64,000 bases of DNA from assembly GCA_964509365.1 (NCBI GenBank), contig CAZDWN010000001.1, positions 214,966-278,965 on the forward strand. Direction: 5' to 3'. The notes below the pieces were generated by a model. The model worked only from the letters and a program-made list of their open reading frames with translations, ran no database searches and was not told where the DNA came from. This DNA is from an uncultured Pseudomonadales bacterium (GTDB taxonomy: Bacteria > Patescibacteriota > Microgenomatia > UBA1400 > UBA12028). A program made the translations under genes and the position numbers. Of the stretch, positions 23,512-55,354 are shown piece by piece (the stretch's first letter is position 1; each line of letters begins with the position of its first letter).

Positions 23512-23532
23512 GACGAGCTTTCATTCTACAGG

Positions 23533-24783: not shown

Positions 24784-24824
24784 GATTCCCAGATAGTATC
24801 AAGGAAGTGACGATACATCCAGGT

Positions 24825-25568
24825 TTAGATTCGTTTCATTGAATCAAGCCGATGTCGAATTGCGAATTGAAAAGAATCGAGGAGTTCTTTGATAGCCTTA
24901 GAGGCAACCATCTTCGATGTGCCCACTTGCCTATCCTGAAATCGTACCGGAAGTTCTCGAAATGAAGCGGTATGTTTTGAAAGTTCATACAACATTGCTG
25001 GAAAAAATGCGTATCCATTGGGAAGAGCACCAAAATTTATTTCATCGATAAGTCCATTGACTTTGATTGCGCGTCCCGCGCTCGTATGTTCATGGACGGC
25101 AGTCATTCCTGCAATCCATTCCGCAAGGATCGTATTCGCCACGAAGTGACCCACTCGTCGCGACAGGCTCGAACTATAAAATTCTGCCTCATTTACTCTG
25201 GAAGCTATGACGACGTCATTTTCCGAAAGGAGATCAATCATTGAGAGTATAGTTTCGGGTGGAAACACGAAATCTGATTCATAGGTAACAATTCCTTCAG
25301 CGTGCATATTTTCCATCGCATACGCATAGCCTCGCTTCATTGCTGCTCCGATTCCGGACTTATCCCCATATGATACAAAAAAATGTGGATATGTCCGAAC
25401 AAAAGAATCCAACACTGCTCGAGTGCCATCCTGAGAATTATCATCGACAATGAGTGTGGAAAAAGAAATGTTTGGACGCATCAAATAAATTTTCGAGTAC
25501 AGCAGTGGTACCAGCTTTTCCAAATTCACCTTTTCGTTGTAAGTCGGAATGAGAATTGTTACTTCCAT
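24825..25568 (-). CDS. GT2 polyprenol-phosphate sugar synthase (Dpm1/AglJ/ArnC-like)
   Basis: 247 aa. ILIPTYNE ... VDDNSQDGT ... acidic DxD-like pocket, typical of dolichyl/undecaprenyl-phosphate glycosyltransferases. Divergent from the LamG operon. Confidence 0.8.
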   Translation of the reverse strand: MEVTILIPTYNEKVNLEKLVPLLYSKIYLMRPNISFSTLIVDDNSQDGTRAVLDSFVRTYPHFFVSYGDKSGIGAAMKRGYAYAMENMHAEGIVTYESDFVFPPETILSMIDLLSENDVVIASRVNEAEFYSSSLSRRVGHFVANTILAEWIAGMTAVHEHTSAGRAIKVNGLIDEINFGALPNGYAFFPAMLYELSKHTASFRELPVRFQDRQVGTSKMVASKAIKELLDSFQFAIRHRLDSMKRI

Positions 25569-25668
25569 TTTTTCATTGTACTGCCAGCTCGCATATACGT
25601 CTATTCTTTGGGTACAAAAGACGGTGGAAAAGAGGCATACTAACTTGGAGAAATACTCTCAATTTTTT

Positions 25669-28600
25669 ATGCACTTTTTTACGTATCAGCGGCGTACAGG
25701 CCACAGGAAAAAATCCAACCGACGAGTCTTCATGTTGGCACTTACCGTTCCAATTGTTCTCGTGCTCCTCCCTGCTTTGTACTTCGGCCTCAAAAGAGCT
25801 TTTCCAGCCAAAGCTGCATGGATGGATAGCAATTGGCGGTATCGCAAGACTGTCGCGATCGTGAATAATGGCTCGACTCAGACGTCGTATCAAGTCATGG
25901 TACCAGTTGACACCTATACGTTGATCAACGCAGGAAAAATGAAATCAGATTGCAGTGACCTGCGGTTTGCGGATAGTGCTGGCTCGACAATGGGCTATTA
26001 TCTTGAGTACTGCGTCAATACCGCAAGCAGTGGAAACTCCGTAGTTTGGGTGACCGTACCGTCGATCACTGGTTCTGCGACGACCAATGTCTACATGTAC
26101 TATGGCAATGGGAGCGCCTCTGCAGTCAGTGCATTTACTTCTGCACCGACTGGCATTGACATCGGCAGTGGCGCAGATGGAAATATCGCGATTGCAGCGG
26201 ATACAAATATCAATACGGCTGATTCCATCAACACTGGTACTGCCCGCGCATGCAGCGATACTACTGGCGGTGACGCTGTCATTTACACGACAGGAGTGAA
26301 TGCTGTCGCTGGCAACACGTCAGTGAATGTCGCGACTGCTGTGAGTTCGAGTTGCTTAAACTCCGGCGACGAAGTCATTATCATCGTTCTCTCTGGTGCC
26401 AATTCAGGGAAATTCGAATTCAATCGCGTCACCTCCACTCCGAGTGGCAATATGATTTCTCTCAGTCATGCGCTCGTTAATTCATACAATGGCGCCGCAG
26501 AAAAAGTTGTGGTCCAGCGCGTACCCAATTATGCAAACGTCACAACCAGTGGCACTGCAAACTTTACTCCCTCCGCATGGAACGGTACATCTGGTGGTGT
26601 GATGATGTTTCGAGCCAGTGGAAATGTCGTCGTCGCCGCGAGCACTGCTATTCATTCAAATTTCTTGGGAAGCAATGGTGGGACGTTTGGAAATGCTGGA
26701 TCTGGAGGAGCGGCCGGCGGTAGCGGCGGCACAGCTGGAACAAGCGGAAGTAGTGGCGTCACTGGAAGTGGCAATGGCGGAGGTGTCTTGGCTACTGCAC
26801 CTGGCACTGGAGGAAATGGTGGAGCGAACGGATCGAACACAGCATCTCTAGGAAACATCCCAGGTGGTGGTGGAGGCGGAGGAGGTGGTGGTGGTGGAGG
26901 CGGTGCCTACGGCACAGCCGCGACTGGAGGCACCGCCGGAAGTGCCGGAGGAAATGCAGGAAACGGAACCTCCACTGCTTCGTATGCTGGCGCGAAAGGA
27001 AATGCTGGCCAGGCAGGAGCCGCAGGCTCTACCTATGGGAACACGAACTTCACGACTTCAAATGCGAATCTGTATTTAGGTTCTGGCGGAGGAAGTGGCT
27101 CTGGAGGAGGAGGAGGTGGTGGTGCTGATTTATTCTTGGCTGCCACCGGTGGAACCGGAGCCAATGGTGGCCGCGGTGGCGAAGGTGGCAATGGTGGCGG
27201 CATCGTTGGAATTTTTGCAAACGCGATTATCAATAATGGCAATATTGGCTCGAATGGACAAAACGCAGCTGCCAGTAATGGAGGAAATGCCGGTGTCGCC
27301 GGATCAGGTAACTCAGCTGGCGGCGGTGGTGGTGGAGGCGGTGGTGGTGGAGGCGGTGGTGGCTCAGGAGGCTCAATTTGGCTGTCCGCAAATAGCGTCA
27401 CGCTTGGGACCTCAAAAGTTGTTGCCAACGGAGGCACTGCTGGCGTCGGTGGCGGCGCGGGAGCTGGTGGAACTTGTGGCAGTGGTGCGAATGATGGTGG
27501 TGGTGGCGGTGGAGGTGGAAATACTGGTGGTGCCGGAGGTACTACGAGCTGTCTCAATGCTGGGACAGCGGGAACAACTGCGGCAAGTTCAGGAAATGGT
27601 GGTAGTGGTGGTCAAGGTCGCATCTTCCAGCAATACAACTCAAATTCAGGGACGACCTCCCCCGCCGCTTCTGGCGTCCAGCTGCCGGTCGCAGCAGCTC
27701 CGACGAGTGAGGAATCTGTCACAAGCTCAGCAAATGTCGAAGCCGTAAACTGGAAATTTGATGAAGGATATGGGACGACTACGGCCGACTCTATGTCAAA
27801 TGCGACGACAGCGACTCTTGCAGGAGCTGCCTTGCCGACTTGGGCAACGGAAGACCAATGTATCTCTGGAAAATGTCTGTATTTCGGAGGCGTCTCCTCA
27901 AAACTGACGGTCGCTAATCCCATTTTGGTGAGTAGTATCTCGTTTTGGATTCGCCCGATTACCACTGCTTCATCAGCGTTCTTTGATTTTGGAGGTGGCA
28001 CAGTCACGATAAAAAGTGACGCTTCAAGCAACTTGACCACCACTGGGTTTACCGGCGCCACCATGTATCTCAATGGCGCAGCATGTACTACCTGTACTCT
28101 TGTCGCGAACCGTTGGCAACACATTGCGGTGATTAGTACTGCAGCGATCACCAGTACAAGCAGTATGACTGTCGCCACCGCGACTCAGTTTTACAAAGGC
28201 TACATGGATGAAGTACGTATCTACTCGTCGACAGTGACCGCTTCACAGATTCTCTCAGAGTACACTAGTCGAGGAAGTATCAACGGGACTTCCGTGCAAA
28301 CTGGCCAGGCATCCCAAGCATTTTTGAGCGATGGTCTTGCTGCGTATTGGAAACTCGAAGAGTCCTCGACCAGCTCAGCTGATAGTACAAATAACGGTAT
28401 GACTGGCACTTGGAATGGTGCCCCTGCCGTCGCAACCGGAAAATTTGGGAAAGCGATCTCCTTTAGCGGGACACCCACTGCCTATGTCAACGTGCTTGAT
28501 AATACGATCCTTGATCCAAGCTATATTACTATTGCTGCTTGGATTAACCCTACGAGCGGGACAGATCGACTCCTCGTCGCCAAGGATGTAAGTTACACAT

Positions 28601-31600
28601 TTGGGATCAATAGCTCTGGATTTTTAAGTTGTGAGATTTACAATGGCTCGGGCTACCTCCCTTCTGCAGTGAGCACCGTGGCTGTCTCGACCGGTACCTG
28701 GCAACATGTCGCCTGTACTTTTGATGGGACAACTACCGCAGTGTATCTCAATGGACAGTTGGTTGGTTCAATCACCACAAGCCCACCAAAAACGGTAAAC
28801 AACGGCTCAAATTCTCTCCGGCTTGGTCATCACGTCGCGGGTACATACGGGGACTACAATGGCAAACTTGACGAGGTTCGTATATACAACCGAGCCTTAC
28901 CCATCAATGAATTGCGTCAATTATATTCCTGGGCTCCAGGGCCGGTTGGCTACTGGCCGTTTGACGAAAATACAGGCCAAATTGCCAATGATCTGAGTGG
29001 CAATGATTGGTCTGGAGACCTTGGCACGACAACTGGTGTCGATACGACAGATCCAGCCTGGGATACTGGGAAGTATGGCTCGGCACTACGATTTACGACG
29101 AGTGCCGACACCTCGGTAAACATTGGAGATGACGATGCGCTCGACGCAGATGCAAACTCGAGTATGTCTTTTGGGCTTTGGGTGAAAGTAACTGGCGTTT
29201 CTTCGTTCAATAATGACACAATCCTCATGGACAAGGAAAATATTGGCGCAGATGCGGGATTTACTTTGGCAATTGGAAATGACTCTTGCGGATCTTTTGG
29301 CCAGATTTGTGTCACCTTGTGGGATGCAGGAGCGGCGATCACCTATTCGATGCACACGACGACTACCGTACCTGATTCAAACTGGCATCATATCGCTTTC
29401 GTCTTTGATCGAACTAGTGAGACGAACACGAATATCTACCTTGATGGAGTCGTCCAGCCGGTTACTCGAACTGGTACATTTGCCAGTCTGGGAAGTCTTG
29501 CGACGACCGATGTACTCTGCGTCGGGATTGAGTCATCAGGCTCAAACTGCGGAGGACTTCATGAACTGACAGGTTCTGTCGACGATATCAAATTTTACAA
29601 TTATCCTCGGACGCAATCGCAAATCATTGAAGACATCAACGGCGGACATCCGATTGGAGGCTCCCCGGTTGCATCACAGCTTATTTATTGGAATTTCGAT
29701 GAACAATCCGGTGCAGGTACGAGCAACAAAGGGTTTGGAGGCACGACGTACAATGGGACCGCCAACGGACCGCAATGGTCAGGTATCTCCAGATCAGTAT
29801 GTAAAGTAAATGGCTGTCTGAAGTTTGTAAGCGGGACAGATTACGTCAGCGTGGCCGATGCAAACTTAGCCTCACTTGATAGTCTGGCTGGCTTTGGCGT
29901 GTCCTTTTGGATAAATCCGCAGACGATGGGCACTGATAAATCGATTCTTTCAAAAAACGATTCAGCGCAGAGAAGTTTCGCTATCGTCACCGATTCGTCA
30001 GATAACACCAAGCTACGTGTCCATATCGCTGCAAGCACTGCTGAAGCAGCAAATACGACCTACTGCACGACAGATTCCGGAGCATTGACGACGAGTGTTT
30101 GGCAGCACTTCACGATTTCCTATGATGGCTCACAATCGACTGCAGCAAATCGAGTGAAAGTCTATAAGAATGGGAGTCAAATAAATTGCTCCATGACGGG
30201 CACATTCCCTACTGCAATGACTTCGGGAAGCACCTCAGATTTGCGAGTTGGTGACGATGTTTCAGCGACATACACCGCCTTATTGGCTTTGATTGATGAG
30301 GTCAAAGTATACAATGCAGCCATATCTGCAGACCAGGCAAAACTTGAAGCAAACTACGGATCTGCTGCCGCCTACTCTACAGGCAATGACGAAGTCACGC
30401 AGATCACAGGAACTGCCGAGACTCCACCAGTCGGCTACTGGCCGTTTGATGACAACACCGGGACCACTGCCTATGACCGCAGCGGCAACAGTAATGATGG
30501 GACCTTAACAAGTTTTGTCAGTAATATCTGGGTACCAGGCAAAGTTGGCTCGAGTCTCAATTTTGATGGCGTCGATAGTCGCGTGACCATTTCCAATTCA
30601 TCGACTTTAGGAGATTTGCCAAGCAGCGGAATGACCTTATCCGCTTGGGTATATCCTCGCTCGACCGGTGAATCTGCTGGAGGTCGTATCGTATCCAAAG
30701 ACGACACCGGACCTGCTAATGGCTGGCAATGGCTGATTGAGAGTACCTCAAAGATGGAGTTTCAAGCAGATTTTACGGGTGGGACCAATACTGACCTTGA
30801 TGTGAAGACGACGGGGACACTCACACTCAATACCTGGCAACATATCGCCCTCACCTGGGATGGCTCAGCAAACGCATCAAATGTGCACATTTACATAAAC
30901 GGTGTTGAGCAAACCCATAGTACCAACACGAGTGGAGACTCAACCAGAGTCTCTGATGTGACAAAAAACTTCATGATTGGCAATGGCCAGACAGGGACAC
31001 GTACGTTTGATGGAATGATCGATGATGTCCGCGCATACAACTATGTACGGACAGCGACTCAAATTGCCTATGATTACAATCGAGGTGGTCCTACCCGATG
31101 GTACAAATTCGATGATAACGTTTCGGGAAATACTCAAACGCTCAAGGATGCGTCAGGCAATACTCTGAATGCCACTACTCATTATGGTGCAAACACGACT
31201 GGCATGGACTGCACCGCAGAGGCGAAGTTCAATAAAGGTTGTTCTCTTGACGGAGTTGATGACTATATCGATATGGCCAACACAGGTTTCCCCACTGGAG
31301 ATTTTACCTTCTCAGTGTGGATAAACCCGACAGCGACAGCGAGTTTCCCTGTTGTATATTTACCGAATGGTAGCGGCAGCTACGTCTTTGAAATACTAAC
31401 TATTAACAGCACAAATAAAATGGAACTGTCACTCAATGCAAGCGGAGTCGTTCTGGACACAAACCAGACAATTACTCCTGGTGCATGGAACCACGTCGTC
31501 TTTACTCGTTCTGGAAGCTCCATAAAAGCGTACATAAACGGAAAGCTCGACTCTGTGACTGCGACATATGGGACTGCCATGACACTAGGAAGTTGTAACA

Positions 31601-31773
31601 TCTTGATTGGCAATCTTGCTTCTTCATCGTGTGCGACTGGGTTGTCGTCTTATTATTCAGGGAAAATTGACGACTATCGATTTTTTAATTATGCGTTGAC
31701 ATTGCCTCAAGTGCAAAAACTGTATACCAACGGTTCCAGTGTGTTTTTTGGCCCAGCAACTGGGTCCCCATAA
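25669..31773 (+). CDS. secreted DUF2341 + multi-LamG (concanavalin A-like lectin/glucanase) protein, paralog 1, with long Gly-rich insertion
   Basis: Start trimmed to the ATG at 25669 (MHFFTYQRRTGHRKKSNRRVFMLALTVPIVLVLLPALYF signal anchor) because the longer ORF overlaps the divergent gene. DUF2341-type N-domain (WMDSNWRYRKTV...DLRFADSAGST..YYLE...VWVTVPSI...VYMYYGN). Repeated LamG_3 signature (W.H.A.T.DG...LY.NG....LDEVRIYNRAL...E). Ends in ...NGSSVFFGPATGSP. Confidence 0.8.
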   Translation: MHFFTYQRRTGHRKKSNRRVFMLALTVPIVLVLLPALYFGLKRAFPAKAAWMDSNWRYRKTVAIVNNGSTQTSYQVMVPVDTYTLINAGKMKSDCSDLRFADSAGSTMGYYLEYCVNTASSGNSVVWVTVPSITGSATTNVYMYYGNGSASAVSAFTSAPTGIDIGSGADGNIAIAADTNINTADSINTGTARACSDTTGGDAVIYTTGVNAVAGNTSVNVATAVSSSCLNSGDEVIIIVLSGANSGKFEFNRVTSTPSGNMISLSHALVNSYNGAAEKVVVQRVPNYANVTTSGTANFTPSAWNGTSGGVMMFRASGNVVVAASTAIHSNFLGSNGGTFGNAGSGGAAGGSGGTAGTSGSSGVTGSGNGGGVLATAPGTGGNGGANGSNTASLGNIPGGGGGGGGGGGGGGAYGTAATGGTAGSAGGNAGNGTSTASYAGAKGNAGQAGAAGSTYGNTNFTTSNANLYLGSGGGSGSGGGGGGGADLFLAATGGTGANGGRGGEGGNGGGIVGIFANAIINNGNIGSNGQNAAASNGGNAGVAGSGNSAGGGGGGGGGGGGGGGSGGSIWLSANSVTLGTSKVVANGGTAGVGGGAGAGGTCGSGANDGGGGGGGGNTGGAGGTTSCLNAGTAGTTAASSGNGGSGGQGRIFQQYNSNSGTTSPAASGVQLPVAAAPTSEESVTSSANVEAVNWKFDEGYGTTTADSMSNATTATLAGAALPTWATEDQCISGKCLYFGGVSSKLTVANPILVSSISFWIRPITTASSAFFDFGGGTVTIKSDASSNLTTTGFTGATMYLNGAACTTCTLVANRWQHIAVISTAAITSTSSMTVATATQFYKGYMDEVRIYSSTVTASQILSEYTSRGSINGTSVQTGQASQAFLSDGLAAYWKLEESSTSSADSTNNGMTGTWNGAPAVATGKFGKAISFSGTPTAYVNVLDNTILDPSYITIAAWINPTSGTDRLLVAKDVSYTFGINSSGFLSCEIYNGSGYLPSAVSTVAVSTGTWQHVACTFDGTTTAVYLNGQLVGSITTSPPKTVNNGSNSLRLGHHVAGTYGDYNGKLDEVRIYNRALPINELRQLYSWAPGPVGYWPFDENTGQIANDLSGNDWSGDLGTTTGVDTTDPAWDTGKYGSALRFTTSADTSVNIGDDDALDADANSSMSFGLWVKVTGVSSFNNDTILMDKENIGADAGFTLAIGNDSCGSFGQICVTLWDAGAAITYSMHTTTTVPDSNWHHIAFVFDRTSETNTNIYLDGVVQPVTRTGTFASLGSLATTDVLCVGIESSGSNCGGLHELTGSVDDIKFYNYPRTQSQIIEDINGGHPIGGSPVASQLIYWNFDEQSGAGTSNKGFGGTTYNGTANGPQWSGISRSVCKVNGCLKFVSGTDYVSVADANLASLDSLAGFGVSFWINPQTMGTDKSILSKNDSAQRSFAIVTDSSDNTKLRVHIAASTAEAANTTYCTTDSGALTTSVWQHFTISYDGSQSTAANRVKVYKNGSQINCSMTGTFPTAMTSGSTSDLRVGDDVSATYTALLALIDEVKVYNAAISADQAKLEANYGSAAAYSTGNDEVTQITGTAETPPVGYWPFDDNTGTTAYDRSGNSNDGTLTSFVSNIWVPGKVGSSLNFDGVDSRVTISNSSTLGDLPSSGMTLSAWVYPRSTGESAGGRIVSKDDTGPANGWQWLIESTSKMEFQADFTGGTNTDLDVKTTGTLTLNTWQHIALTWDGSANASNVHIYINGVEQTHSTNTSGDSTRVSDVTKNFMIGNGQTGTRTFDGMIDDVRAYNYVRTATQIAYDYNRGGPTRWYKFDDNVSGNTQTLKDASGNTLNATTHYGANTTGMDCTAEAKFNKGCSLDGVDDYIDMANTGFPTGDFTFSVWINPTATASFPVVYLPNGSGSYVFEILTINSTNKMELSLNASGVVLDTNQTITPGAWNHVVFTRSGSSIKAYINGKLDSVTATYGTAMTLGSCNILIGNLASSSCATGLSSYYSGKIDDYRFFNYALTLPQVQKLYTNGSSVFFGPATGSP

Positions 31774-31774
31774 T

Positions 31775-34700
31775 ATGATTTGGCAAAAAAAATATTCCCA
31801 GCGCAAAAATCCAAATCGTCGACTCTATGTCTTGGCGGCTACCCTTCCTCTACTCTTCATATTGATTCCAGCAATCTATTTCGGCCTGAGGTTTGCCAAT
31901 CGTACACGAGCAGTCTGGATGGATGACTCTTGGCAATATCGAGTGAAAGTCCCAGTGACTGCGCATACAGGAGCCGAGACAAATAAATACTTTACGAAGA
32001 CCGTCGATACATCTGACACTACTCGATTCCAAGCGGATTGTGGTGACATACGGTTTACCGATGTCGGCGGAAAAATACTCTCATATTACATTGCATCAGG
32101 GTGCAGCAGTGCGAGTACCGTCATCCATGTACTTGTGCCAGACTTCACTGCTGGAGCCACTGATTACTACATGTATTATGGGAACCCAAGCGCGCCAGAT
32201 GGATTCTCAGCAAGCGACTTCACTGCTGGCTCTCTTGTCACGGTCGGAACTTTGGGAGGTGAAGAAAAAGGAGTTGGGCCGGTTGCGTATTGGTCATTTG
32301 GTGACGGCAATGGGACGACTGCTCAAGATGGCACAAATAATAATAATGACGGAACCTTGAGTAACGGTCCTACTTGGAAAGCCGAGGGAGACTGCATCTC
32401 TGGCAAATGCATCTCTCTTGATGGAACTGATGACATCGTCACGGTCACCAACTCGACTGCTATAGACTTAGACGCTACTGGAGGCCTGGCATCCGGATTT
32501 ACTGTTGAAGCTTGGATCCGGCCAAACGGAGCTGGCGAAGGAACCGGTGGACAAATCTTCTTCAAAGGTACGAATACTTGGTTGAAAGTGACCAATCTTA
32601 CGAGTGGTCTGCTTGATCTCTCTGCCAGTGTTGATCTGGCCACCACTGATGCGACGTTGACTGCATCTGCCAAAGTGACAAACAACCAATGGACCCATGT
32701 TGCTTTGTCATACACAGATGATGGCGACGATGAGATTACGATTTGGGTCAATGGTGTCTCCGTCGGCAGCTCGACGAATGGAGTTGGCTCTTTGGCAACG
32801 GACACCAACAACTTTGTGATCGGAGGGACGACGACCAATAACTTCGCCGGAAGCATTGATGAAATGAAGATTTACAATGCCGAAAGAAGTGCAGCGCAAA
32901 TGAGAGTTGATTATAATTCTCGAGGCGGTATGACTGCCTCTTCAACTGTCCAAGGTACTGGTAACGCACGTTCACTCTCAAATGGACTGGTCGGATATTG
33001 GAAAATGGACGAAGCGAGTTGGGCAACTGACTGCTCGACTGCGTCAGTACTCGACTCTTCGGGCAATGGCAACAACGCTCGCCCATGTCCAAACGCCTCC
33101 GCCGCGACACAAGGAGTCGGCAAGTTTGGAAAAAGCGGTAGTTTTGACGGCACAAACGATTATCTTGAGATACCGACAGCGACAAGTTTGCATCCGGGTG
33201 ATACGTTTACGCTCTCTGCCTGGGTGAAGCGCAGCGGCACTGGGACGTTCGATGCGATTCTTGGGACCGGTGCAGATGATTTTCAGTTAGCTTTTGTAAA
33301 TGACAACATCAAATTGTCCAGACAATCCACCTCAGATGTATTTGTTAGCACCAGTACCTATACCGACACCACAAACTGGCATCACATCGTTGCCTCCAAG
33401 AACGGATCAACTTCAGCAACTGTCTATGTTGACGGCCAACCCATAGCAGGTACGTACACCAATCAGACTATCATCGCTGGTTCAAGTTCGGTGTACATCG
33501 GTGGCGATGGGAACGGAGCCGACATTCTTGCAGGGTCGATCGACGAAGTGCGTATCTATAATCGAGCTCTTTCGCCGGCGGAAGTAAGCCAACTGTATGC
33601 ATCAGCTCCTGGGCCGGTGGCGTATTGGAAGCTCGATGACAATACCGGAAGCAGCGCGATTGACTCGAGCGGCAACACAAACACTGGATCGTTGGGAGGA
33701 GCACTTTCATGGACCCAAGGGAAACTTGGAGGCGGCGTCACCTACCCCACTGCAGGCGGCACCTGTATTAGTGCCGGCACAGGAGCCAGTATTACGAATC
33801 TCCCTTCCCTCACCATTTCTGCGTGGATAAAACCGACGAGTGAAGGATCTGATAGTGGAGTTGGCCGCATCGTCGGGAAAGACCCTGGATATTCTTTTTT
33901 AGTTGGCGACACCGCACCGGTCAACACGACAAATGGATTGACATTTACCAAAGGATACGCCACTACTGAGCTCAAAGTACAGTCTGCAAATAATGTGTGG
34001 ACTGCAAATACTTGGCAGTATGTGACCGTAACCTGGAATGGAAGTCAAACCGCCTCGACAGCGGTCAAGATGTACGTCAATGGCGTTGAGACGACGTATC
34101 AAACACAACAAAATGGAGTCGGATCGACCAGCTCAGATGTCAATGGTCTAGCCATTGGTGCCTTTAGTGCTGCCTCATGCAACTTTGCCGATTTTGAGGG
34201 AGCTCTCGACGATGTAAAGATCTACAACTACGCTCGTACGCCTTCGCAGATCATTGAAGATATGAATGGAAGTCATCCAATCGGAGGCTCGCCAGTAGGC
34301 TCCCAACTCATCTACTGGAATATGGATGAACAAGCGACAGCGGTGATAAATAACACAGGATCAGGAGGATCGACTTATAATGGATCGGCGAATGGTCCCC
34401 AATGGTCCACGATCACCGTTCCAAGCTGCAAAGTAAACGGATGTCTTTACTTTGACACTGCAGCAGATTATACGAACACGTCACTTGGAACCATACTGAA
34501 TGGAGCATCCGCATTTGCGACTTCTTTGTGGATCAAACCAACTTCGCTTGCCGGCGGCACAATGATTGTTTCAAAAGCAAACACCACGACGCAGCGGGCA
34601 TTTCAGATCCTTGAAGACTCAGCGAACACTAACTCCGAAATCAAAGTCATGATTTCATCGATTGCAAGCGATACGAGTAATTATTGCATTACGAACGGGT

Positions 34701-36319
34701 TTGGTTTATCTACGACAGCTTGGCAACATCTCAGTGTGAGTTACGATGGATCTCAGCCAACTGGTGACAATAACCGAATCAAAGTGTATAAAAATGGTTT
34801 CCCTATCCCCTGTGTAGTGACTGGCACCATACCGACTAGCCTGCCCGCCACAACCAGTCTACTCAAACTTGGTCAAGGTGATGACACGACTCCAAACTCA
34901 GTCACAGCGTATATCGACGAATTCAAATTCTATACCGTGCCACTTTCAGCCGATCAAGTGAAAATCGAAGCAAATTATGGTGCATCGACGGCGTACTCGA
35001 CTGGAAGTGATGAACCGACGCAGATCACTGGCACGGCAGAGACAGTCGGAATTGGATATTGGCCGTTTGAGGAAAACAGCGGAACGCTGGCAAGTAATAA
35101 ATTTGGCACATCCTATGATGGTACTCTCAACAACTCACCGACGTGGATGCAAAGCTCCAACTGCAAAGTCGGTCACTGTCTCTCGTTTGCGAGTGCAAGC
35201 AGCCAAGATATATCTGTTGCGAATACAGTTCTTGGTATCAAGACCGTCTCATTTTGGGCAAAGCCGACATCGACAACTACGAGCCTTCTCCAACTACAGG
35301 CGAGCGGTGCTGTGGCAATCACTGCTACTGCCGGAACACTTTCAGCGACGGGCTTTACGAGTCCAACCATCTACGTGAATGGATCACTGAGCTCGACCAT
35401 AGTCGCCAATGTCTGGCAATACATCACTGTCACGACTGGTACGAGCATTTCGGGATCTGCAGTCAAATTTGGACACGTAAACGCTACGTATTACGACGGT
35501 CAACTGGATGAAATCAAGATGTATAACTATGCTCGTACCAAAGCGCAAGTGAACTATGACTACAATCGTGGAGCTCCGATTGGCTGGTGGCAATTTGACG
35601 AGTGTCAAGGTTCGAGTGCGTTTGATGCAAGTGGAAATGGAAGTACAGCCACCTTGACGTATGGAGGTGGGACATACACGCAAGTGGGCACGTGTAACTC
35701 TGGGACAAGTTCCGATGCCTGGTATGGAGGTGTATCAGGTCGATTCAATGGTGGCATCGCGATTGACTCAACCACAGATACGATCAACGTCGGGAATGTG
35801 AGTCTCTATTCATTTGACCGTACTGATCCATTTACGACATCAATTTGGTTTAAGACATCGACATTGCAGTCATCGACATTATTTTCAAAACAAGACAGTA
35901 GCGCCCCTTTTAGCGGATGGAATATCCAGACAGATAATACGGGAAAACTCTATTTTCAATTCGTAAACACGTACAGTTCAAATATTTTAGAACGACGGAC
36001 AACTAGCGCAGTTGCCTATACGGATGGCAACTGGCACAACGTTACTACGACGTATGACGGTTCTAGTTCCCCTTCCGGTGTCCACATCTATTATGATGGA
36101 AATGATCAAGTGCTGACGACCGATTTTAATAGCTTGAGTGCTGCTACAACAAATTCAATATCAGTCTACATTGGTTCGCGAAATGGAACGGCGCAAAAAT
36201 ATTCTGGACTTCTTGATGATGTTCGCTTATACAACTACGCGTTAAGTAGCAGCCAAGTAAAGAAACTTATTATCAATGGCTCATCGATAAATTTTGGCCC
36301 CGCGATAGGATCACCGTAA
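31775..36319 (+). CDS. secreted DUF2341 + multi-LamG protein, paralog 2
   Basis: ATG at 31775, one nt after the paralog-1 stop (taatATG). Signal anchor RRLYVLAATLPLLFILIPAIYFGL, DUF2341 domain and multiple LamG_3 repeats (IDEVRIYNRALSPAEVSQLY and others). Ends in ...NGSSINFGPAIGSP. Confidence 0.8.
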   Translation: MIWQKKYSQRKNPNRRLYVLAATLPLLFILIPAIYFGLRFANRTRAVWMDDSWQYRVKVPVTAHTGAETNKYFTKTVDTSDTTRFQADCGDIRFTDVGGKILSYYIASGCSSASTVIHVLVPDFTAGATDYYMYYGNPSAPDGFSASDFTAGSLVTVGTLGGEEKGVGPVAYWSFGDGNGTTAQDGTNNNNDGTLSNGPTWKAEGDCISGKCISLDGTDDIVTVTNSTAIDLDATGGLASGFTVEAWIRPNGAGEGTGGQIFFKGTNTWLKVTNLTSGLLDLSASVDLATTDATLTASAKVTNNQWTHVALSYTDDGDDEITIWVNGVSVGSSTNGVGSLATDTNNFVIGGTTTNNFAGSIDEMKIYNAERSAAQMRVDYNSRGGMTASSTVQGTGNARSLSNGLVGYWKMDEASWATDCSTASVLDSSGNGNNARPCPNASAATQGVGKFGKSGSFDGTNDYLEIPTATSLHPGDTFTLSAWVKRSGTGTFDAILGTGADDFQLAFVNDNIKLSRQSTSDVFVSTSTYTDTTNWHHIVASKNGSTSATVYVDGQPIAGTYTNQTIIAGSSSVYIGGDGNGADILAGSIDEVRIYNRALSPAEVSQLYASAPGPVAYWKLDDNTGSSAIDSSGNTNTGSLGGALSWTQGKLGGGVTYPTAGGTCISAGTGASITNLPSLTISAWIKPTSEGSDSGVGRIVGKDPGYSFLVGDTAPVNTTNGLTFTKGYATTELKVQSANNVWTANTWQYVTVTWNGSQTASTAVKMYVNGVETTYQTQQNGVGSTSSDVNGLAIGAFSAASCNFADFEGALDDVKIYNYARTPSQIIEDMNGSHPIGGSPVGSQLIYWNMDEQATAVINNTGSGGSTYNGSANGPQWSTITVPSCKVNGCLYFDTAADYTNTSLGTILNGASAFATSLWIKPTSLAGGTMIVSKANTTTQRAFQILEDSANTNSEIKVMISSIASDTSNYCITNGFGLSTTAWQHLSVSYDGSQPTGDNNRIKVYKNGFPIPCVVTGTIPTSLPATTSLLKLGQGDDTTPNSVTAYIDEFKFYTVPLSADQVKIEANYGASTAYSTGSDEPTQITGTAETVGIGYWPFEENSGTLASNKFGTSYDGTLNNSPTWMQSSNCKVGHCLSFASASSQDISVANTVLGIKTVSFWAKPTSTTTSLLQLQASGAVAITATAGTLSATGFTSPTIYVNGSLSSTIVANVWQYITVTTGTSISGSAVKFGHVNATYYDGQLDEIKMYNYARTKAQVNYDYNRGAPIGWWQFDECQGSSAFDASGNGSTATLTYGGGTYTQVGTCNSGTSSDAWYGGVSGRFNGGIAIDSTTDTINVGNVSLYSFDRTDPFTTSIWFKTSTLQSSTLFSKQDSSAPFSGWNIQTDNTGKLYFQFVNTYSSNILERRTTSAVAYTDGNWHNVTTTYDGSSSPSGVHIYYDGNDQVLTTDFNSLSAATTNSISVYIGSRNGTAQKYSGLLDDVRLYNYALSSSQVKKLIINGSSINFGPAIGSP

Positions 36320-36320
36320 T

Positions 36321-39300
36321 ATGTTGTGGCATCACAAGAAATATCAGCGCAAGAGTAACCGGCATCTCTACGTTTTGGCCGCGACACTTCCCTTGCTTCT
36401 CATCTTGATCCCTGCGATTTACTTTGGATTACGCTTTGCCAATCGAACCCAAGCAGTCTGGATGGATGATTCCTGGCAATATCGAATTAAAGTCCCAGTG
36501 ACTGCTCACACAGGAGCCGAGACAAATAAATATTTCTCGGCCACATTTGACACATCTGACACTACAAGGTTTCAGTCCGACTGCGGAGATATTCGCTTTA
36601 CTGACCTGAAAGGGAGGATTTTGCAGTATTACATTGCCTCAGGCTGTAGCAGTGCAAGCACCGTTATCCATGTACTGGTGCCAGATTTTGCCATCAATGC
36701 CACTGACTATTATATGTACTATGGAAATCCCAATGCAGCGGATGGCTTCTCAGCGAGTGACTTTAGCGCTGGCACGGGTGTGACGATCGGGACACTTGGA
36801 AGTGAAGAGAAGACGACTGGACCCTATGCGTACTGGGCGTTTGACGAAGGCACGTCGACGATCGCTCATGATTCTGCCTCTGGTCGATATGATGGCACAA
36901 TTACAAACGGCCCTATCTGGAGAGATAGCAACCTCTGTATCTCCGGAAAATGTCTTTTTTTTGACGGGACCAATGATACTGTAACCATTGGAAATATCGC
37001 CGCTCTCAATTTTGAAAAGACAGATGCGTTCTCCATCTCGACGTGGATTCGTACAAACAATCCAGCAGCAGCAAATATCATTTCCAAACAAGCTAATATT
37101 GCCCCGTTTGCTGGCTGGAATTTGCAGACTGGCGGATCAGGAAAAATTATTTTTCAACTCGCCAACACCTACAGCTCAAATACGCTCGAGGTCGTTACGA
37201 CAAATGACATGGCGTATTCAGATAACAAATGGCATCACGTCGAAGTCACGTATGATGGTTCCAATACACCCGCAGGAGTTAATCTGTATTTTGACGGAGT
37301 CGCCCCTGCCATGACCACCACCACAAATACACTCTCGGGTTCAATCGCCAATTCATCAAGTGTTGAGATCGGCTCAAGAAATGCTGCTGGCAATTTCTTC
37401 AAGGGTGAGATCGATGAAACAAAGATCTATAAATCAGTTCGATCGGCCGCGCAAGTGCGTGCAGACTACAACTCCAAGGGTGGCTCTCGTTTAACTGGGA
37501 GCGTTCAAGGTGGAGTCGACAACGTTGCCTTGAGTAGTGGCCTTGTCGGATACTGGAACATGGATGAGGCATCCTGGAACAATAACTGCTCAAGCCAGTC
37601 AGTGACCGATCTCTCTGGCAACATCAATGCGGTCAAGAGTTGTCCAAATACAACTGGACCGACTGGAGGTGCCGCGGGGAAATTTGGCAACAGCGGGAAC
37701 TTCGATGGGACGAATGATTACCTAGATGGCGGCGATGATACAGACTTTGAATTTGGAAGTGCGACTTCAGAGATGACACTTGCCGCTTGGGTCAATCCGA
37801 CGACAATCACACCTGCTGCCGCGATGACAATCGTGAGTAAATATAATTCCACTTCAAATCGAGAATACATTTTTCAGATGTCGACGAGTGGCAAATTGAC
37901 GTTGACTCTTTCAGGTGACGGTGCGAGCGTGACTTCGCTTTCAAGTACGTCGTCAATGACTGCGAGCACGTGGCAACATGTCGCCGTGACGTTTGCTGCC
38001 TCGACGGGCACAGTCAGATTTTATATCAATGGAGTGTTGGATAAAGAAGGCACGATTGCGATTTCACCTATTTTTACAGGTACTGCCCTCTTTGAGATCG
38101 GAGCGACGAATAAGAGTGGGACGACACCTGACTTGTTTTGGAGTGGGAATCTCGATGAGGTACGAGTGTACAAGAAGCTTTTGTCACCTGGAACGATAAG
38201 AAGTCTGTACGCATTCGCCCCTGGCCCACTCGGGTACTGGCCACTTGATGAGCATGCGGGTACATCGGCATCAGACTTAAGTGGCAATTCTCTCACCGGC
38301 ACCGTCACAAATGGCCCAGTATGGACGGCTGGGAAATTTGGCTCCGCACTGACGTTTGATGGCTCCGATGACAACGTAAATATCGGAAACACCATTGATC
38401 TTTCAGGAAACAAACCGATGAGCCTGTCGGCATGGATCTATCCGACAGCGACACCAGGGGTGAATGGCGCAGGAATCATCTCAAAATATGATCGAGGAAA
38501 TGCTGGTGAATGGAGATTGTTTCTTAATTCTTCTCGGCAAATTCAAATGTTACGAGAATGTGGAGGGTTTGGAATTGTCAGCACAACCGCAGTCACCCTC
38601 AATACGTGGACTCATGTGGAAGGATCTTATGACGGAACGAACTTGAGGATCTATTTGAATGGAGTTTTGGACAAGACTACCGCAGACAGTTGTTCCGTGA
38701 GTAGTACCGCAATCGAAGTCATCATTGGGGCCGGAGATAACGGATCAGGCGTGGAAGACGTTTTTACTGGCAGCATTGATGATGTACGCATGTACAGTTA
38801 TGGGAGAACTGCGTCACAAATTACAGAAGATATGAATGGAGGACATCCGATCGGAGGATCTCCAGTCGGTTCGCAAGTCAGTTATTGGAATATGGATGAA
38901 ACCAATGGGACGACTGCTCGAGATACATCCGTCAACGCAAACAACCTGACGTTATCAACTGCTTCATGGACACGATCAGGGAAAACCAATTCAGCCTGGA
39001 ATGGTGTAGGGACAAACTGGCTCTCTCGCGCCGATGATGACGATCTTGATTTCTCGGCGGCAGAAGATTTTACGCTCTCACTCTGGTTCAAATCAGATTC
39101 AGCTAGTAATCCCGCGGCCACTGAATACTTGATGTATAAAGCTCCGTCAGGGGCTAGCAATGGTGGATATGGATTGTATGTCAATACGTCGGGCCAGCTT
39201 TGTTTTGGCATTGACGATGACAATACATCCTTCCCTGAGGATTCCTCTTGCTCCACTGCAGACTTTTATGATGCCACGTGGCATCACGTGCTTGCGATCA

Positions 39301-40967
39301 AGACTGGCACGTCAAAAATTCAACTCTTTGTGGATACGAGACCACAAACTGCAGATGTGAGCATCTCATCCACTGGGACACTAGCAAACACTTCTACGTT
39401 TTATCTGGGAGATAAAGATGGGACAGACAATGGCGATGAGCTCAATGGAGATCTCGACGAAGTAAAGATCTACCGGTCTGCACTGACAAGTGAGCAAGTT
39501 GCCATTGATTACAATGCGGGAGCTTCACTCAACTACGGAGTCACAGCGACAAGTGAGAGTACACAAATCACTGGTTCAGCCGAAACTGGACCCATCGGCT
39601 ACTGGCCTATGGATGAAAAAAACGCGTCAACCGCAAAAGATATGTCTGGCAACGGAAGAGACGCTACGCTCAATGCGAATTTTACGTTCGATAGTGACTC
39701 TGGATGGACTCAAGGAAAGCTCGGAAGTGCAGTTCATTTTGATGGGACCAATGACGTCATGCAAGTGATCTCGACGGCATACAACTTGGTCGGCAGCGGA
39801 GATTTTACGATCGAAAGTTGGGTCAAGCTCGATACGATTAGCTCTTCCGTCAACTCGCGTATTTTGACGTTCCAACAAGACGCTTCAAATGGCTACCATT
39901 TTGCGGTTGTCAGTAGCGCCAGTGGGACATGTGGAAGCCGGTTCTTATTTGAAGTTGATAAAGCAGCCACGTATCATGCCAGCGGCTGTTCATCGAGTAA
40001 TCCACTAGCTGTAGTCAATACGTGGTATCACCTCGTCGGCGTCTACAATGGGACTACCAATGTAGCGACATTGTATGTCAATGGTATCCCTCAAGTTGCC
40101 GGCTCCAACGTCACACTCGGTCTTGGCGTCGCTGGTCGATTATCTTGGGCCAGTCAATCGACTGCCGGGACGAACCTCATGGATGGAGTCATCGATGAAA
40201 CGAAAATTTTCGATTATGGCCGGACGCAGGCTCAAGTCGCCTATGACTATAATCGCGGGGCTCCACTTGGGTATTGGCAACTCGATGATTGCCAGACTTC
40301 GACAGCTCGCGATGCGAGTGGCAATGGTTACAATGGCACACTGACGATCGGAGGATCGGGGACTTCGGTGGTTGGAACTTGTAACACCTCATCTTCTGCC
40401 TGGGGCAATGGCTCGACAGGAAAAGTAAATTCTGGACTTGGCCTGGACGGTACCGATGACTTTGTCGACGTTTCCGATACCTCAAACATACGATTTGATG
40501 CTGCGACACAAGACTTTTCAGTTTTTGCCTGGGTAAAACGTGGAGCTACGGGCGCGGAAATGGACATCGTGAGTAAAGAAGATGCTGATAACGACGGGTG
40601 GAGACTTGAGTTCACCAGCAGCAACACCGTGAGGTGTAGTGTGAACTCAATCGATGTTGATAGCACACAGACGATCACTGATACGACCACTTGGCACCAT
40701 GTGGGATGTAGCGTTTCGCGCGCAGGAAATGGTCAAGTGTATATTGATGGCAAACCATCTGGTAGCGCTACGGCGATTTCCTCAACAGCCATGGCGACGA
40801 CCGCTGGACTTCGTTTTGGGGCACGCTCGTATACAGTGGCAAATTATTTCAACGGAATTCTCGATGATGTGAAGCTCTTCAATTATGCTTTGACACTTTC
40901 GCAAGTACGGACCATCTTTAATGGCGGTGGTGGTGTCAATTTTGGCCCATCTACGGGACAACCGTAG
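36321..40967 (+). CDS. secreted DUF2341 + multi-LamG protein, paralog 3
   Basis: ATG at 36321, one nt after the paralog-2 stop. The first approx. 130 aa are nearly identical to paralog 2. Multiple LamG_3 repeats. Ends in ...GGGGVNFGPSTGQP. Confidence 0.8.
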   Translation: MLWHHKKYQRKSNRHLYVLAATLPLLLILIPAIYFGLRFANRTQAVWMDDSWQYRIKVPVTAHTGAETNKYFSATFDTSDTTRFQSDCGDIRFTDLKGRILQYYIASGCSSASTVIHVLVPDFAINATDYYMYYGNPNAADGFSASDFSAGTGVTIGTLGSEEKTTGPYAYWAFDEGTSTIAHDSASGRYDGTITNGPIWRDSNLCISGKCLFFDGTNDTVTIGNIAALNFEKTDAFSISTWIRTNNPAAANIISKQANIAPFAGWNLQTGGSGKIIFQLANTYSSNTLEVVTTNDMAYSDNKWHHVEVTYDGSNTPAGVNLYFDGVAPAMTTTTNTLSGSIANSSSVEIGSRNAAGNFFKGEIDETKIYKSVRSAAQVRADYNSKGGSRLTGSVQGGVDNVALSSGLVGYWNMDEASWNNNCSSQSVTDLSGNINAVKSCPNTTGPTGGAAGKFGNSGNFDGTNDYLDGGDDTDFEFGSATSEMTLAAWVNPTTITPAAAMTIVSKYNSTSNREYIFQMSTSGKLTLTLSGDGASVTSLSSTSSMTASTWQHVAVTFAASTGTVRFYINGVLDKEGTIAISPIFTGTALFEIGATNKSGTTPDLFWSGNLDEVRVYKKLLSPGTIRSLYAFAPGPLGYWPLDEHAGTSASDLSGNSLTGTVTNGPVWTAGKFGSALTFDGSDDNVNIGNTIDLSGNKPMSLSAWIYPTATPGVNGAGIISKYDRGNAGEWRLFLNSSRQIQMLRECGGFGIVSTTAVTLNTWTHVEGSYDGTNLRIYLNGVLDKTTADSCSVSSTAIEVIIGAGDNGSGVEDVFTGSIDDVRMYSYGRTASQITEDMNGGHPIGGSPVGSQVSYWNMDETNGTTARDTSVNANNLTLSTASWTRSGKTNSAWNGVGTNWLSRADDDDLDFSAAEDFTLSLWFKSDSASNPAATEYLMYKAPSGASNGGYGLYVNTSGQLCFGIDDDNTSFPEDSSCSTADFYDATWHHVLAIKTGTSKIQLFVDTRPQTADVSISSTGTLANTSTFYLGDKDGTDNGDELNGDLDEVKIYRSALTSEQVAIDYNAGASLNYGVTATSESTQITGSAETGPIGYWPMDEKNASTAKDMSGNGRDATLNANFTFDSDSGWTQGKLGSAVHFDGTNDVMQVISTAYNLVGSGDFTIESWVKLDTISSSVNSRILTFQQDASNGYHFAVVSSASGTCGSRFLFEVDKAATYHASGCSSSNPLAVVNTWYHLVGVYNGTTNVATLYVNGIPQVAGSNVTLGLGVAGRLSWASQSTAGTNLMDGVIDETKIFDYGRTQAQVAYDYNRGAPLGYWQLDDCQTSTARDASGNGYNGTLTIGGSGTSVVGTCNTSSSAWGNGSTGKVNSGLGLDGTDDFVDVSDTSNIRFDAATQDFSVFAWVKRGATGAEMDIVSKEDADNDGWRLEFTSSNTVRCSVNSIDVDSTQTITDTTTWHHVGCSVSRAGNGQVYIDGKPSGSATAISSTAMATTAGLRFGARSYTVANYFNGILDDVKLFNYALTLSQVRTIFNGGGGVNFGPSTGQP

Positions 40968-41022
40968 TCGATACAAATCAGCGCTAGCTTTTTGTAAAAA
41001 AAAATGGAATACTTAGAGACCT

Positions 41023-43116
41023 ATGCAAGGCAACTCATCCTTTTCCCTGAAAAACACATTCTCTTTCCTCTCTATCGCAGTTGCACTCGGCGTAGTCGCA
41101 CTACTCCCCGTCTTGTTTTTTCCGTTCATTCCAAATTTATTTGACACTGCAAAATACTCAATGGTGATCATCGTGAGTTTGCTCATGGTCATCGCATTTG
41201 CGGTCTTCGCAGTCCTTCGTCGTTCACTCGAAGTGTCTCGTTCCCTCGTGACCGTCGGTTTTGGGCTTCTCTCGCTCTCGACTGTCATTTCAATAATTCT
41301 TTCCAGTCCAAATAAATATGAAGCCATGACCGGATCAGGCGTCTTCTTCTTGTGTCTTGGGCTTCTGTATATCGTTCTCGCGACGAGCATTAAAAAAAGA
41401 TTCACTACTTCCCTCGTCATTGCGATGGGTGTTGGCGGTGTGTTGATCACTCTCTTTTCTATACTTGAGAAAGTCGGCGCAAATCTTTTCTCATTGTTTG
41501 GACTCAACGGCACCACCGTCATGGGATTGTTTCCAAATGGTGGCAGCTTGATCAACTTCTCACTACTGCTGATCATTTTGGTGACATTAGTATTGTCCGC
41601 GATCACTCAGAAGCAAGTGGTGACTCGAGCAATCTCGATCGCGCTCTCCGGAGTCGTCGTCCTCGGTCTCATCCTCAATGGAGTGAATCTCTTACCTGGA
41701 AGTGCCCAAGCTCCTGTATTGCTTCCGTTCAGTGCAAGCTGGAGTATCGCCTTGGATGTGTTGAAGACTCCTCGCACGGCTTTAGTTGGAGTCGGTCCAC
41801 AAGGCTACGTCCAAGCGTTCAGTTTGTTTAAGCCAATAGCGCTCAATAACACGCCATTCTGGGCTGTGCGATTTGGAGCCGCTCACAACGTCCCACTTGA
41901 TATCATTGTCACACACGGAGCCATCGGAGTTGTCGCATTGGCGCTGATTCTCTTGGGTATTCTCGCAAAAGTGAAATCCACGCGAAAGCAAGATCTTCCT
42001 CTGCTTGGTGGTGTCGCGATCAGCGTCCTGATTTTCCTCCTCATCCCTGCAGGACCAGTCCTCTGGGTACTGCTTGCAGTGCTGCTCGTTGCGTGGAATG
42101 CTGCAAACGCAGAGTCGTTGGTGGATGGCAGTGAAGACACTTCGACATTTGTGCTCTTGAGCGCGCATAGTAAGACTGGCAAAGATGAGAAACATGTATC
42201 GACGGGCATCATTGCCGTGATCGCTCTCCTATTGATCGGAGGCTCGCTCTTCGGCTTGTACTTCAATACTCGCTCACTGGCATCTCAAATTGTGTATGGA
42301 AAAGCGCTTGAAGCGATCCGTACCAACAAAGCAAAAGATGCGTATGATTTGATGCGCACCGCGATCACGATTGCTCCATATCATGAAGATCTGCGCCGCA
42401 CCTTCTCTCAGATCAACCTGTCGATCGCCCAAGGTCTCACCCAAAATAAAGATTTGAGCGATGAGGACAAAAAGACTGCGATCACCTTGATCCAACAATC
42501 GATCAATGAAGCAAAAGCTTCAGTGGCTCTCAACCAAACCGAGTCTTCAAACTGGCTTTCACTCGCTATCGTCTATGACAATTTGATCGGTGCTGCCAAA
42601 GAGGCCGATCAATGGACAGTAGCCGCGTATACGCAAGCGATCATTCGAGATCCAGCCAACCCACGCACTCGCGTTGATTTGGGAGGCGTGTATCGTAAGT
42701 TGAAGAGTGACGACCAAGCAAGTCGACTCTTTGAGCAAGCAGCTCAATTGAAGCCTGACTATGCCAATGCCTACTTCAATATGGCAAGTATCGCCCAGTC
42801 ATTGGATCACAAAGATCAGCAGTTGGCACTGCTCAAGAAGACCCTCTCACTGTTGGATCCAAAAGACCCTCAGTATGCACAGGTCAAAGACATCGTCGAC
42901 AAGCTTGATACCGAAGTCCAAGCAGCCGCGAAAGATTCAAAGACTGGCACGCCAACTGCAACGCCAAGGCCGACGGCGACACCAGTCCCGGCTGACGCGA
43001 CAGCGACAAGTAGTGCAAAGGCAAAGATTGAATTGCCACCGGATGCTGGGATAGCGAGCAACTCCGCTTCTGTCCCACCAGTCCCGACCGCATCTCCAAA
43101 AGCGGCGACACAGTAA
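41023..43116 (+). CDS. O-antigen ligase (Wzy_C) family membrane protein with C-terminal TPR repeats and Pro/Thr/Ala tail (WaaL/PglL-like)
   Basis: 697 aa. About 12 TM helices. Wzy_C signature loop (LVGVGPQGYVQAF...FWAVRFGAAHNVPLDIIVTHGAIGVVAL). Then an approx. 250-aa TPR-like helical region (KPDYANAYFNMASIAQSL...) and a TPTATPRPTATPVP tail. Confidence 0.7.
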   Translation: MQGNSSFSLKNTFSFLSIAVALGVVALLPVLFFPFIPNLFDTAKYSMVIIVSLLMVIAFAVFAVLRRSLEVSRSLVTVGFGLLSLSTVISIILSSPNKYEAMTGSGVFFLCLGLLYIVLATSIKKRFTTSLVIAMGVGGVLITLFSILEKVGANLFSLFGLNGTTVMGLFPNGGSLINFSLLLIILVTLVLSAITQKQVVTRAISIALSGVVVLGLILNGVNLLPGSAQAPVLLPFSASWSIALDVLKTPRTALVGVGPQGYVQAFSLFKPIALNNTPFWAVRFGAAHNVPLDIIVTHGAIGVVALALILLGILAKVKSTRKQDLPLLGGVAISVLIFLLIPAGPVLWVLLAVLLVAWNAANAESLVDGSEDTSTFVLLSAHSKTGKDEKHVSTGIIAVIALLLIGGSLFGLYFNTRSLASQIVYGKALEAIRTNKAKDAYDLMRTAITIAPYHEDLRRTFSQINLSIAQGLTQNKDLSDEDKKTAITLIQQSINEAKASVALNQTESSNWLSLAIVYDNLIGAAKEADQWTVAAYTQAIIRDPANPRTRVDLGGVYRKLKSDDQASRLFEQAAQLKPDYANAYFNMASIAQSLDHKDQQLALLKKTLSLLDPKDPQYAQVKDIVDKLDTEVQAAAKDSKTGTPTATPRPTATPVPADATATSSAKAKIELPPDAGIASNSASVPPVPTASPKAATQ

Positions 43117-43728: not shown

Positions 43729-43736
43729 TGAGCGTG

Positions 43737-43807
43737 TGGACTGTGGGGGAATCGAACCCCCGTTCTATCGTTGCGGACGATATGTACTACCGCTGTACGA
43801 ACAGCCC
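43737..43807 (-). tRNA. tRNA-Ala (anticodon CGC by manual fold)
   Basis: Manual cloverleaf: acceptor GGGCTGT/ACAGTCC with G3:U70, D-arm GTAC-AGCGGTA-GTAC, anticodon arm TATCG-TCCGCAA-CGATA, T-arm GGGGG-TTCGATT-CCCCC, discriminator A73, no encoded CCA. The loop has C33, which is unusual, so the anticodon call is tentative. Confidence 0.7.
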
Positions 43808-44221: not shown

Positions 44222-44292
44222 GGGCCCGTAGTACACCGGTAGTATACTTCCATGGCATGGAATAGAAAGGGGTTCGATTCCCCTCGGGTCCA
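44222..44292 (+). tRNA. tRNA-Ala (anticodon GGC)
   Basis: Manual cloverleaf: acceptor GGGCCCG/CGGGTCC with G3:U70, D-arm GTAC-ACCGGTA-GTAT, anticodon loop ATGGCAT (U33, GGC, A37), T-arm AGGGG-TTCGATT-CCCCT, discriminator A73, no encoded CCA. Confidence 0.75.
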
Positions 44293-44298
44293 CAGTGA

Positions 44299-55326: not shown

Positions 55327-55354
55327 AGGGCAGTATGTCTAACGATGATTCTGT

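Follow-up and report, generated by a model that had tools for sequence, protein, structure and literature searches.

Large Patescibacteria proteins often carry DUF2341, a domain annotated as a type IV pili-like component (PMC11809585; PMC4858521), and LamG/concanavalin proteins of the candidate phyla radiation (CPR) have generally been proposed to mediate attachment (PMC11310336, PMC12911398). The closest described relatives of the genes considered here are patescibacterial entries at NCBI, from Woesebacteria and Levybacteria metagenome-assembled genomes (MAGs), which are named 'DUF2341 domain-containing' or 'LamG-like jellyroll fold' proteins and are ~1500 amino acids (aa) long. No experimental study of these proteins was found in the literature searched, nor was any paper on the DUF2341-6xLamG family or its gene neighbourhood. 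We analyzed three adjacent genes of this family, A, B and C, within a window of 64,000 nt of contig CAZDWN010000001.1 (assembly GCA_964509365.1, positions 214,966-278,965, forward strand). Their products have in common with the NCBI entries a signal peptide, DUF2341, six or more LamG domains, the linkers EDMNGGHPxGGSP and TQITGxAE..GYWPFDE and the C-terminal ending FGPxTGxP; the entries are 30-51% identical to B over its full length, and nothing essential is different. What distinguishes this locus is the presence of three copies with 1-nt junctions and, in A, of an ~520-aa, largely Gly-rich insert. Taken alone, the triad is unremarkable, as it belongs to a large family that is already catalogued but uncharacterised. 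The main new point, overlooked in an earlier sequence-only reading of this DNA, is a conserved gene order, in which a gene for a giant fibre with a helix-turn-helix (HTH) domain and a transmembrane (TM) segment is followed by one to four DUF2341-LamG genes and then by a Wzy_C-like/tetratricopeptide repeat (TPR) gene. As for the proteins themselves, we conclude, with slightly more confidence than doubt, that A, B and C are proteins of the cell surface or the extracellular space that are exported by Sec and contain disulfides, and in which DUF2341 and six LamG domains serve multivalent ligand binding and docking to a common partner.

Other described systems are more distant. TafC, the tip subunit of haloarchaeal Tat-fimbriae (NCBIfam NF052521; PMC11821415), carries LamG on a filamentous surface structure and is a proposed adhesin, with LamG as its proposed tip-adhesin domain. 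B matched the TafC model in five stretches (E 2e-48), but with 165 bits against a cut-off of 410 and only at profile positions 149-368, the LamG part, so that it does not belong to the TafC family. Moreover, TafC has 373 aa, a Tat signal and an N-terminal donor-strand pilin-like domain, whereas A-C combine a Sec signal with DUF2341 and six LamG domains and are not accompanied by Taf genes. Among other jelly-roll binding domains, those of clostridial neurotoxin (HcN), sialidase (CBM40), GH43 AbnA (domain 4), the pentraxins and laminin/neurexin (LG) are only 10-23% identical, and A-C are without the toxin or enzyme module of such proteins. Finally, the Giant1-5 genes of Apilactobacillus kunkeei, a host-associated bacterium, also encode very large extracellular proteins head-to-tail and take up a sizeable share of the genome (PMC12863079); their sequences and domains are unrelated and the likeness is one of analogy only. 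In our window, A, B, C and the giant gene occupy ~31.7 kb of the 64 kb.

All three genes lie on the forward strand: A at 25669-31773 (6105 nt, 2034 aa), B at 31775-36319 (4545 nt, 1514 aa) and C at 36321-40967 (4647 nt, 1548 aa). TAA-t-ATG junctions with a 1-nt spacer join A to B (31771-31777) and B to C (36317-36323). The open reading frames (ORFs), both junctions and the alignments agree with the sequence-only reading in its description of three collinear paralogues joined by TAAtATG. The ATG starts are supported by the homology of the N-termini, each with a Lys/Arg-rich stretch followed by ~20 hydrophobic residues; there is no obvious Shine-Dalgarno sequence for B. The genes are tightly packed and probably co-expressed, and the 1-nt junctions would permit termination-reinitiation, by which three proteins could be made from one transcript in a fixed proportion. 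Scanning 25300-41300 for promoters and terminators gave no more sites than expected from shuffled sequence, which provides no evidence for or against a shared promoter or internal terminators.

Pfam searches bore out the two folds that had been recognized from the letters alone. DUF2341 (PF10102) was found at aa ~87-154 with 48.1 (A), 38.2 (B) and 43.5 (C) bits, all above the gathering cut-off of 23.4, and Laminin_G_3 was found above its gathering cut-off of 27.6 in six stretches per protein, with 404 (A), 362 (B) and 459 (C) bits. A family hidden Markov model (HMM), built from the 18 LamG domains of A, B and C, likewise detected exactly six in each protein; the sequence-only reading had counted six to nine, and numbers of seven to nine are found only in other family members. 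In A, a signal peptide (aa 1-49, cleavage between AKA and AW) is followed by DUF2341 (aa ~50-160), the insert (aa ~161-681) and the six LamG domains (aa 682-2022). B is composed of a signal peptide (aa 1-46, TRA and VW), DUF2341 (aa ~47-157) and six LamG domains (aa 158-1502), and ends in NFGPAIGSP; C has the same plan, with a signal peptide (aa 1-45, TQA and VW), DUF2341 (aa ~46-155) and six LamG domains (aa 156-1536), and ends in NFGPSTGQP. An AlphaFold2 model of B aa 44-400 (pLDDT 77) consists of a small N-terminal beta-sandwich and a jelly-roll. The model of the DUF2341 domain is confident (pLDDT 87), and the best structural matches were binding domains. PDB sequence searches with B and with the N-terminal 700 aa of A yielded nothing useful.

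Membership of the concanavalin-like glucanase superfamily raises the question of whether A, B and C are instead secreted enzymes that degrade polysaccharides or process glycans. Besides the common fold superfamily, sub-threshold Pfam matches to sialidase N-terminal and trans-sialidase C-terminal domains would fit such a role, although these concern lectin-like rather than catalytic domains. A match to 3-keto-disaccharide hydrolase above its cut-off (37.3 bits against 26.8) covers a 47-residue stretch within a LamG domain of A, and a faint GH16 neighbour occurs in one related locus (L001). However, the GH16-type ExDxxE motif was not found in A, B or C, no glycoside-hydrolase family, including GH16, gave a Pfam match above its curated cut-off in any of them, and the non-catalytic Laminin_G_3 is the best model for all six domains of each protein. 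With binding domains also as the top structural matches, we consider an enzymatic function extremely improbable.

The domains are joined by linkers that are shared throughout the family. Both inter-domain blocks quoted in the sequence-only reading, QIIEDxNGGHPIGGSPVxSQLIYWN(F/M)DEQ and EANYGSxxAYSTGxDExTQITGTAET..GYWPFD, were recovered in A, B and C, in slightly divergent form in C, and they are among the most conserved columns of an alignment of 30 family members. The linker between the third and fourth LamG domains, EDMNGGHPxGGSPxGSQ, is nearly invariant family-wide and far more conserved than the LamG cores; it corresponds to aa 1318-1345 of A (~29620-29703), aa 825-852 of B (34247-34330) and aa 833-860 of C (38817-38900), all on the forward strand. 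The LamG domains are mostly positional orthologues, with 91% of best matches at the same position among 71 six-domain proteins. Occasional swaps occur, the first LamG of C being closest to the sixth of B, and LamG pairs up to 80% identical sit at different positions in different genomes.

The A-specific insert, which went unmentioned in the sequence-only reading, lies between DUF2341 and the first LamG domain (26149-27711, forward strand; ~520 aa) and begins with an AgmC_N-like part, which is followed by a part rich in poly-Gly and Gly-Ala-Asn. The likeness of the first part to the N-terminal domain of the gliding protein AgmC is weak (42 bits against a cut-off of 275), and neither Pfam nor the PDB sequences gave a match to the insert. 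Its poly-Gly runs are encoded by GGN tandem tracts (26862-26905 and 27318-27363), the length of which could vary by slippage.

A, B and C are collinear paralogues with 33% (A:B), 31% (A:C) and 37.5% (B:C) protein identity, which is unevenly distributed. B and C are 84% identical across their first 150 aa, i.e., the signal peptide and DUF2341, and ~30% identical across the LamG array. Recent gene conversion among the paralogues was considered and ruled out: the longest DNA repeat between them is 248 nt at 76% identity, long near-identical repeats are lacking, and the 5' ends of B and C contain many synonymous differences. Since the DNA of this region is only 72-76% identical despite 84% protein identity, selection on the N-terminal module, and not recent conversion, accounts for its conservation. 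This selected likeness of the B and C N-termini, against ~30% elsewhere, argues for a common partner. We propose that each mature chain, after probable signal cleavage, would form a small DUF2341 beta-sandwich followed by six LamG jelly-rolls joined by the conserved linkers. The N-terminal DUF2341 would dock to the common partner, for which the giant fibre or the cell envelope is the most plausible candidate, while the LamG arrays would act as multivalent glycan- or ligand-binding modules, and the divergent LamG sets of the three paralogues may widen the ligand range, e.g., to host-cell or matrix glycans.

The N-termini have a positively charged n-region, an h-region of ~20 aa and then the motif (A/S/T/V)-x-A. 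Of 111 family members with a recognisable N-terminus, 109 have Ala at -1, which lies two positions ahead of the invariant DUF2341 Trp, 104 have A, S, T or V at -3, and 109 have a strongly hydrophobic segment before the motif; residues A46 and W48 are invariant in the 30-member alignment. This arrangement ahead of Trp is the one classically recognized by signal peptidase I, so that (A/V)W(M/F)DD is the most likely start of the mature proteins, and the N-terminus is much more likely to be a Sec signal peptide that is cleaved off than the signal anchor that the sequence-only reading had assigned. Furthermore, the Cys residues of A, B and C are even in number and mostly closely paired, which fits extracytoplasmic disulfides. 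Neither an LPxT[GAS] motif, a C-terminal hydrophobic tail nor a second TM segment was found in the three proteins, which thus lack the features of sortase-anchored proteins. Their C-terminal ending (31744-31770, 36290-36316 and 40938-40964, forward strand) belongs to a family-wide motif, (F/Y)GPx(T)GxP-COOH, which 95 of 121 members share; the motif is similar to the inter-domain linker APGPVGYW and has a PxTG-like core, without the hydrophobic tail of a sortase signal.

To place the family, we scanned one genome per GTDB species, compared B with protein databases and surveyed the ORFs of 78 related loci, searched with the window proteins; all counts refer to the DNA stretches examined. B had at least 1219 significant matches among 8000 candidates scored, dozens of them full-length at E=0, and the named homologues belong to Woesebacteria, Levybacteria or the "Patescibacteria group". 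The genome scan returned 466 stretches, almost all labelled Patescibacteria, of which 77 loci were kept; their titles are mostly of Microgenomates lineages, with some of WWE3, CPR3, Falkowbacteria and Saccharibacteria. Homologues and loci together cover Woese-, Levy-, Davies-, Ames-, Gottesman-, Roizman- and Shapirobacteria, WWE3 and others, and the closest relative among the GTDB species representatives is 51% identical, so that the source species is not one of them. These names and titles agree with the earlier assignment to a patescibacterial family, and A, B and C show its full-length collinear homology, AxA site, linkers and C-terminal FGPxTGxP. Many cassette-bearing MAG or third-party annotation records are titled "uncultured Gammaproteobacteria" or "Pseudomonadales" (L008, L009, L012, L016, L058 and others); these titles are regarded as unreliable, apparently mislabelled, because the same cassette is present, with high scores, in these loci (e.g., L058). 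A phage origin was ruled out, as PHROGs and IMG/VR gave only generic LamG matches and the window contains housekeeping genes (iPGM, Obg, Rho and probable RadA); among the viral contigs of IMG/VR there was no full-length member, only distant LamG pieces.

The triad had been called typical. In the 78 loci, however, the LamG gene is single in 47, and two copies are found in 24, three in 6 and four in 1. Junctions of 4 nt or less occur only in the closest relatives, namely L003, with three 1-nt junctions, and L004, L005, L025, L048 and L078, which are also tight; in more distant loci the genes are 40-140 nt or more apart. This confinement of the 1-nt spacers to the closest relatives suggests that translational coupling, which the sequence-only reading had overstated as almost certain, would be a habit of the lineage and not a feature of the family.

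Upstream of gene A, at 3872-20320 on the forward strand, lies a gene for a protein of 5482 aa, with a MerR/BldC/excisionase-like HTH at aa 10-58, one TM segment at aa 108-126 and then ~5300 aa of T/S/G/A/N-rich repeats with paired Cys. Beyond the HTH, it had no Pfam, NCBIfam, PHROG or PDB match; its C-terminus found nothing useful among PDB sequences, and its N-terminal 250 aa, used as query, returned only short HTH proteins or fragments. A homologue (>100 bits, upstream, same strand) is present in 30 of the 63 loci for which 1.5 kb or more of upstream DNA could be examined, with a gap of -4 to +36 nt in 17 of those. The homologues have internal modules and the C-terminal ~500 aa in common. 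An N-terminal HTH was detectable in 6 of the 15 whose N-terminus is visible (8 of 15 at a relaxed threshold), and also in L001. It is unusual for a giant extracellular fibre to be attached to a DNA-binding domain.

Downstream, a membrane protein gene (41023-43116, forward strand; 697 aa, ~10 TM helices, TPR repeats at aa 548-622) begins 55 nt beyond the end of gene C, and no terminator-like site separates the two. TPR-protein homologues are found downstream in 12 loci, with a gap of 50-105 nt in 7. The window protein matches TPR models only, and 2 of 15 homologues match Wzy_C (PF04932, O-antigen ligase; best E 9e-12), from which it appears to be remotely related to Wzy_C/O-antigen-ligase proteins. 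This protein, together with the local glycosylation genes described below, may glycosylate or assemble the Ser/Thr-rich surface proteins.

The same neighbours bear on a possible connection with pili. MshQ of Vibrio is a type IV pilus-associated DUF2341 protein. Following the COG annotation of DUF2341 and the reading of MshQ and of the Methanococcus proteins of arCOG03508, one might take A, B and C for adhesins that are accessory to a type IV pilus-like system or sit at its tip. The Methanococcus proteins are large and exported, carry DUF2341 and often LamG, and are thought to be adhesins linked to type IV pili (PMC4858521). Unlike such proteins, A-C have no pilus genes nearby, and no pilus ATPase, platform, prepilin peptidase or pilin gene was detected by Pfam in the 64-kb window, in L001 or in L003. 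The conserved neighbours are instead the giant fibre and the Wzy_C-like/TPR protein, and the N-termini carry a Sec-type AxA site, not the prepilin G|F..E motif. Thus, we regard a role in a pilus as very unlikely.

A more speculative proposal follows from the conserved order. The cassette might encode an undescribed surface apparatus that is widespread in Patescibacteria, with the LamG proteins as its variable lectin components, and composed of a membrane-tethered fibre with a cytoplasmic MerR/BldC-like domain, one to four lectins docked through DUF2341, and a glycosylating or assembling Wzy_C-like/TPR protein. We rate this as quite unlikely. If it is true, the fibre would both hold the lectins away from the cell and report contact or tension to the chromosome, much as membrane-bound transcription factors of the ToxR type do.

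Between the giant gene and gene A, on the reverse strand, lie four genes (20411-25568) that may constitute an extracytoplasmic glycosylation system. They encode a DUF6541-like polytopic membrane protein (20411-22063), a polytopic membrane protein of 516 aa without a family match (21961-23511), a sugar C-methyltransferase of the NDP-sugar type (Methyltransf_13/14; 23533-24783) and a small family 2 glycosyltransferase (GT2; 24825-25568), the last with weak likeness to polyprenyl-phosphate sugar synthases and S-layer glycosyltransferases. The ORF coordinates agree with the earlier description of a divergent geometry, in which exactly 100 nt (25569-25668) separate the GT2 gene from gene A; promoters are presumed to lie in this region, in which no promoter-like site above chance was found. 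The module's arrangement recurs in one other locus (L003), and its two membrane proteins recur downstream in 3 more. As the arrangement is found in L003 only, the module is a local insertion that separates the giant gene from gene A and not the partner of the family, and the sequence-only reading had overstated it as a link.

This result also matters for the idea that the three proteins build a structural envelope or S-layer-like coat. In that case the LamG arrays would attach to glycans of the cell's own wall, produced by the adjacent glycosylation genes, and would give rise to a protective surface layer instead of binding a host. Such a coat would be in keeping with exported proteins rich in Ser, Thr, Gly and Asn with paired Cys, with the adjoining GT2/C-methyltransferase/membrane module and Wzy_C-like protein, with the near ubiquity of the family in Microgenomates-type genomes and with the strong conservation of the N-terminal module. 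However, Pfam revealed neither SLH nor any other known S-layer anchoring domain in A, B or C, the glycosylation module is not conserved as a neighbour, and one to four copies, fast divergence of the LamG cores and occasional cassette swaps fit variable external ligands better than a lattice. We consider a coat unlikely, although it has more in its favour than the pilus or enzyme readings.

We return to surface or extracellular proteins that bind ligands multivalently and dock through DUF2341, and several points weigh against this proposal. Ligand binding, localisation and expression would all be deduced from sequence. Cell association is assumed, because after signal cleavage A, B and C retain no recognisable anchor (TM, LPXTG or SLH). 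N-x-S/T sequons are not enriched, so that the sequence gives no support for N-glycosylation. The kinship to Wzy_C is remote, the window protein itself matching TPR models only, and the giant and TPR neighbours are missing from many loci with enough flanking DNA. In addition, LamG folds also have non-adhesive roles. The term adhesin, used in the sequence-only reading, was too strong, as it draws on the fold and on the general literature view of CPR LamG proteins (PMC11310336, PMC12911398).

Two further features of the window were noted. Just downstream of the cassette, before obg, there are two divergent tRNA-Ala genes, at 43736-43807 (reverse strand) and 44222-44293 (forward strand), with anticodons CGC and GGC. 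Farther on, at 54010-59937 on the reverse strand, a sortase gene (54010-55326) is grouped with genes for a 900-aa DUF11/DUF7601/DUF7619 protein and a 627-aa protein without a family match; the group probably represents a sortase-dependent surface or pilus locus of its own.

Apart from the pili of Saccharibacteria, little is known of the means by which ultra-small Patescibacteria recognise other cells and hold on to them. In Microgenomates-type genomes, few sets of exported lectin-like proteins are as large and as widespread as the present family. The parts most worth study are the giant-fibre/LamG/Wzy_C-TPR cassette and the HTH-TM-giant architecture. Altogether, the six-domain scaffold, the variable LamG cores and the linkage to the giant fibre and Wzy_C-like genes provide testable candidates for a host- or matrix-binding apparatus in these bacteria.

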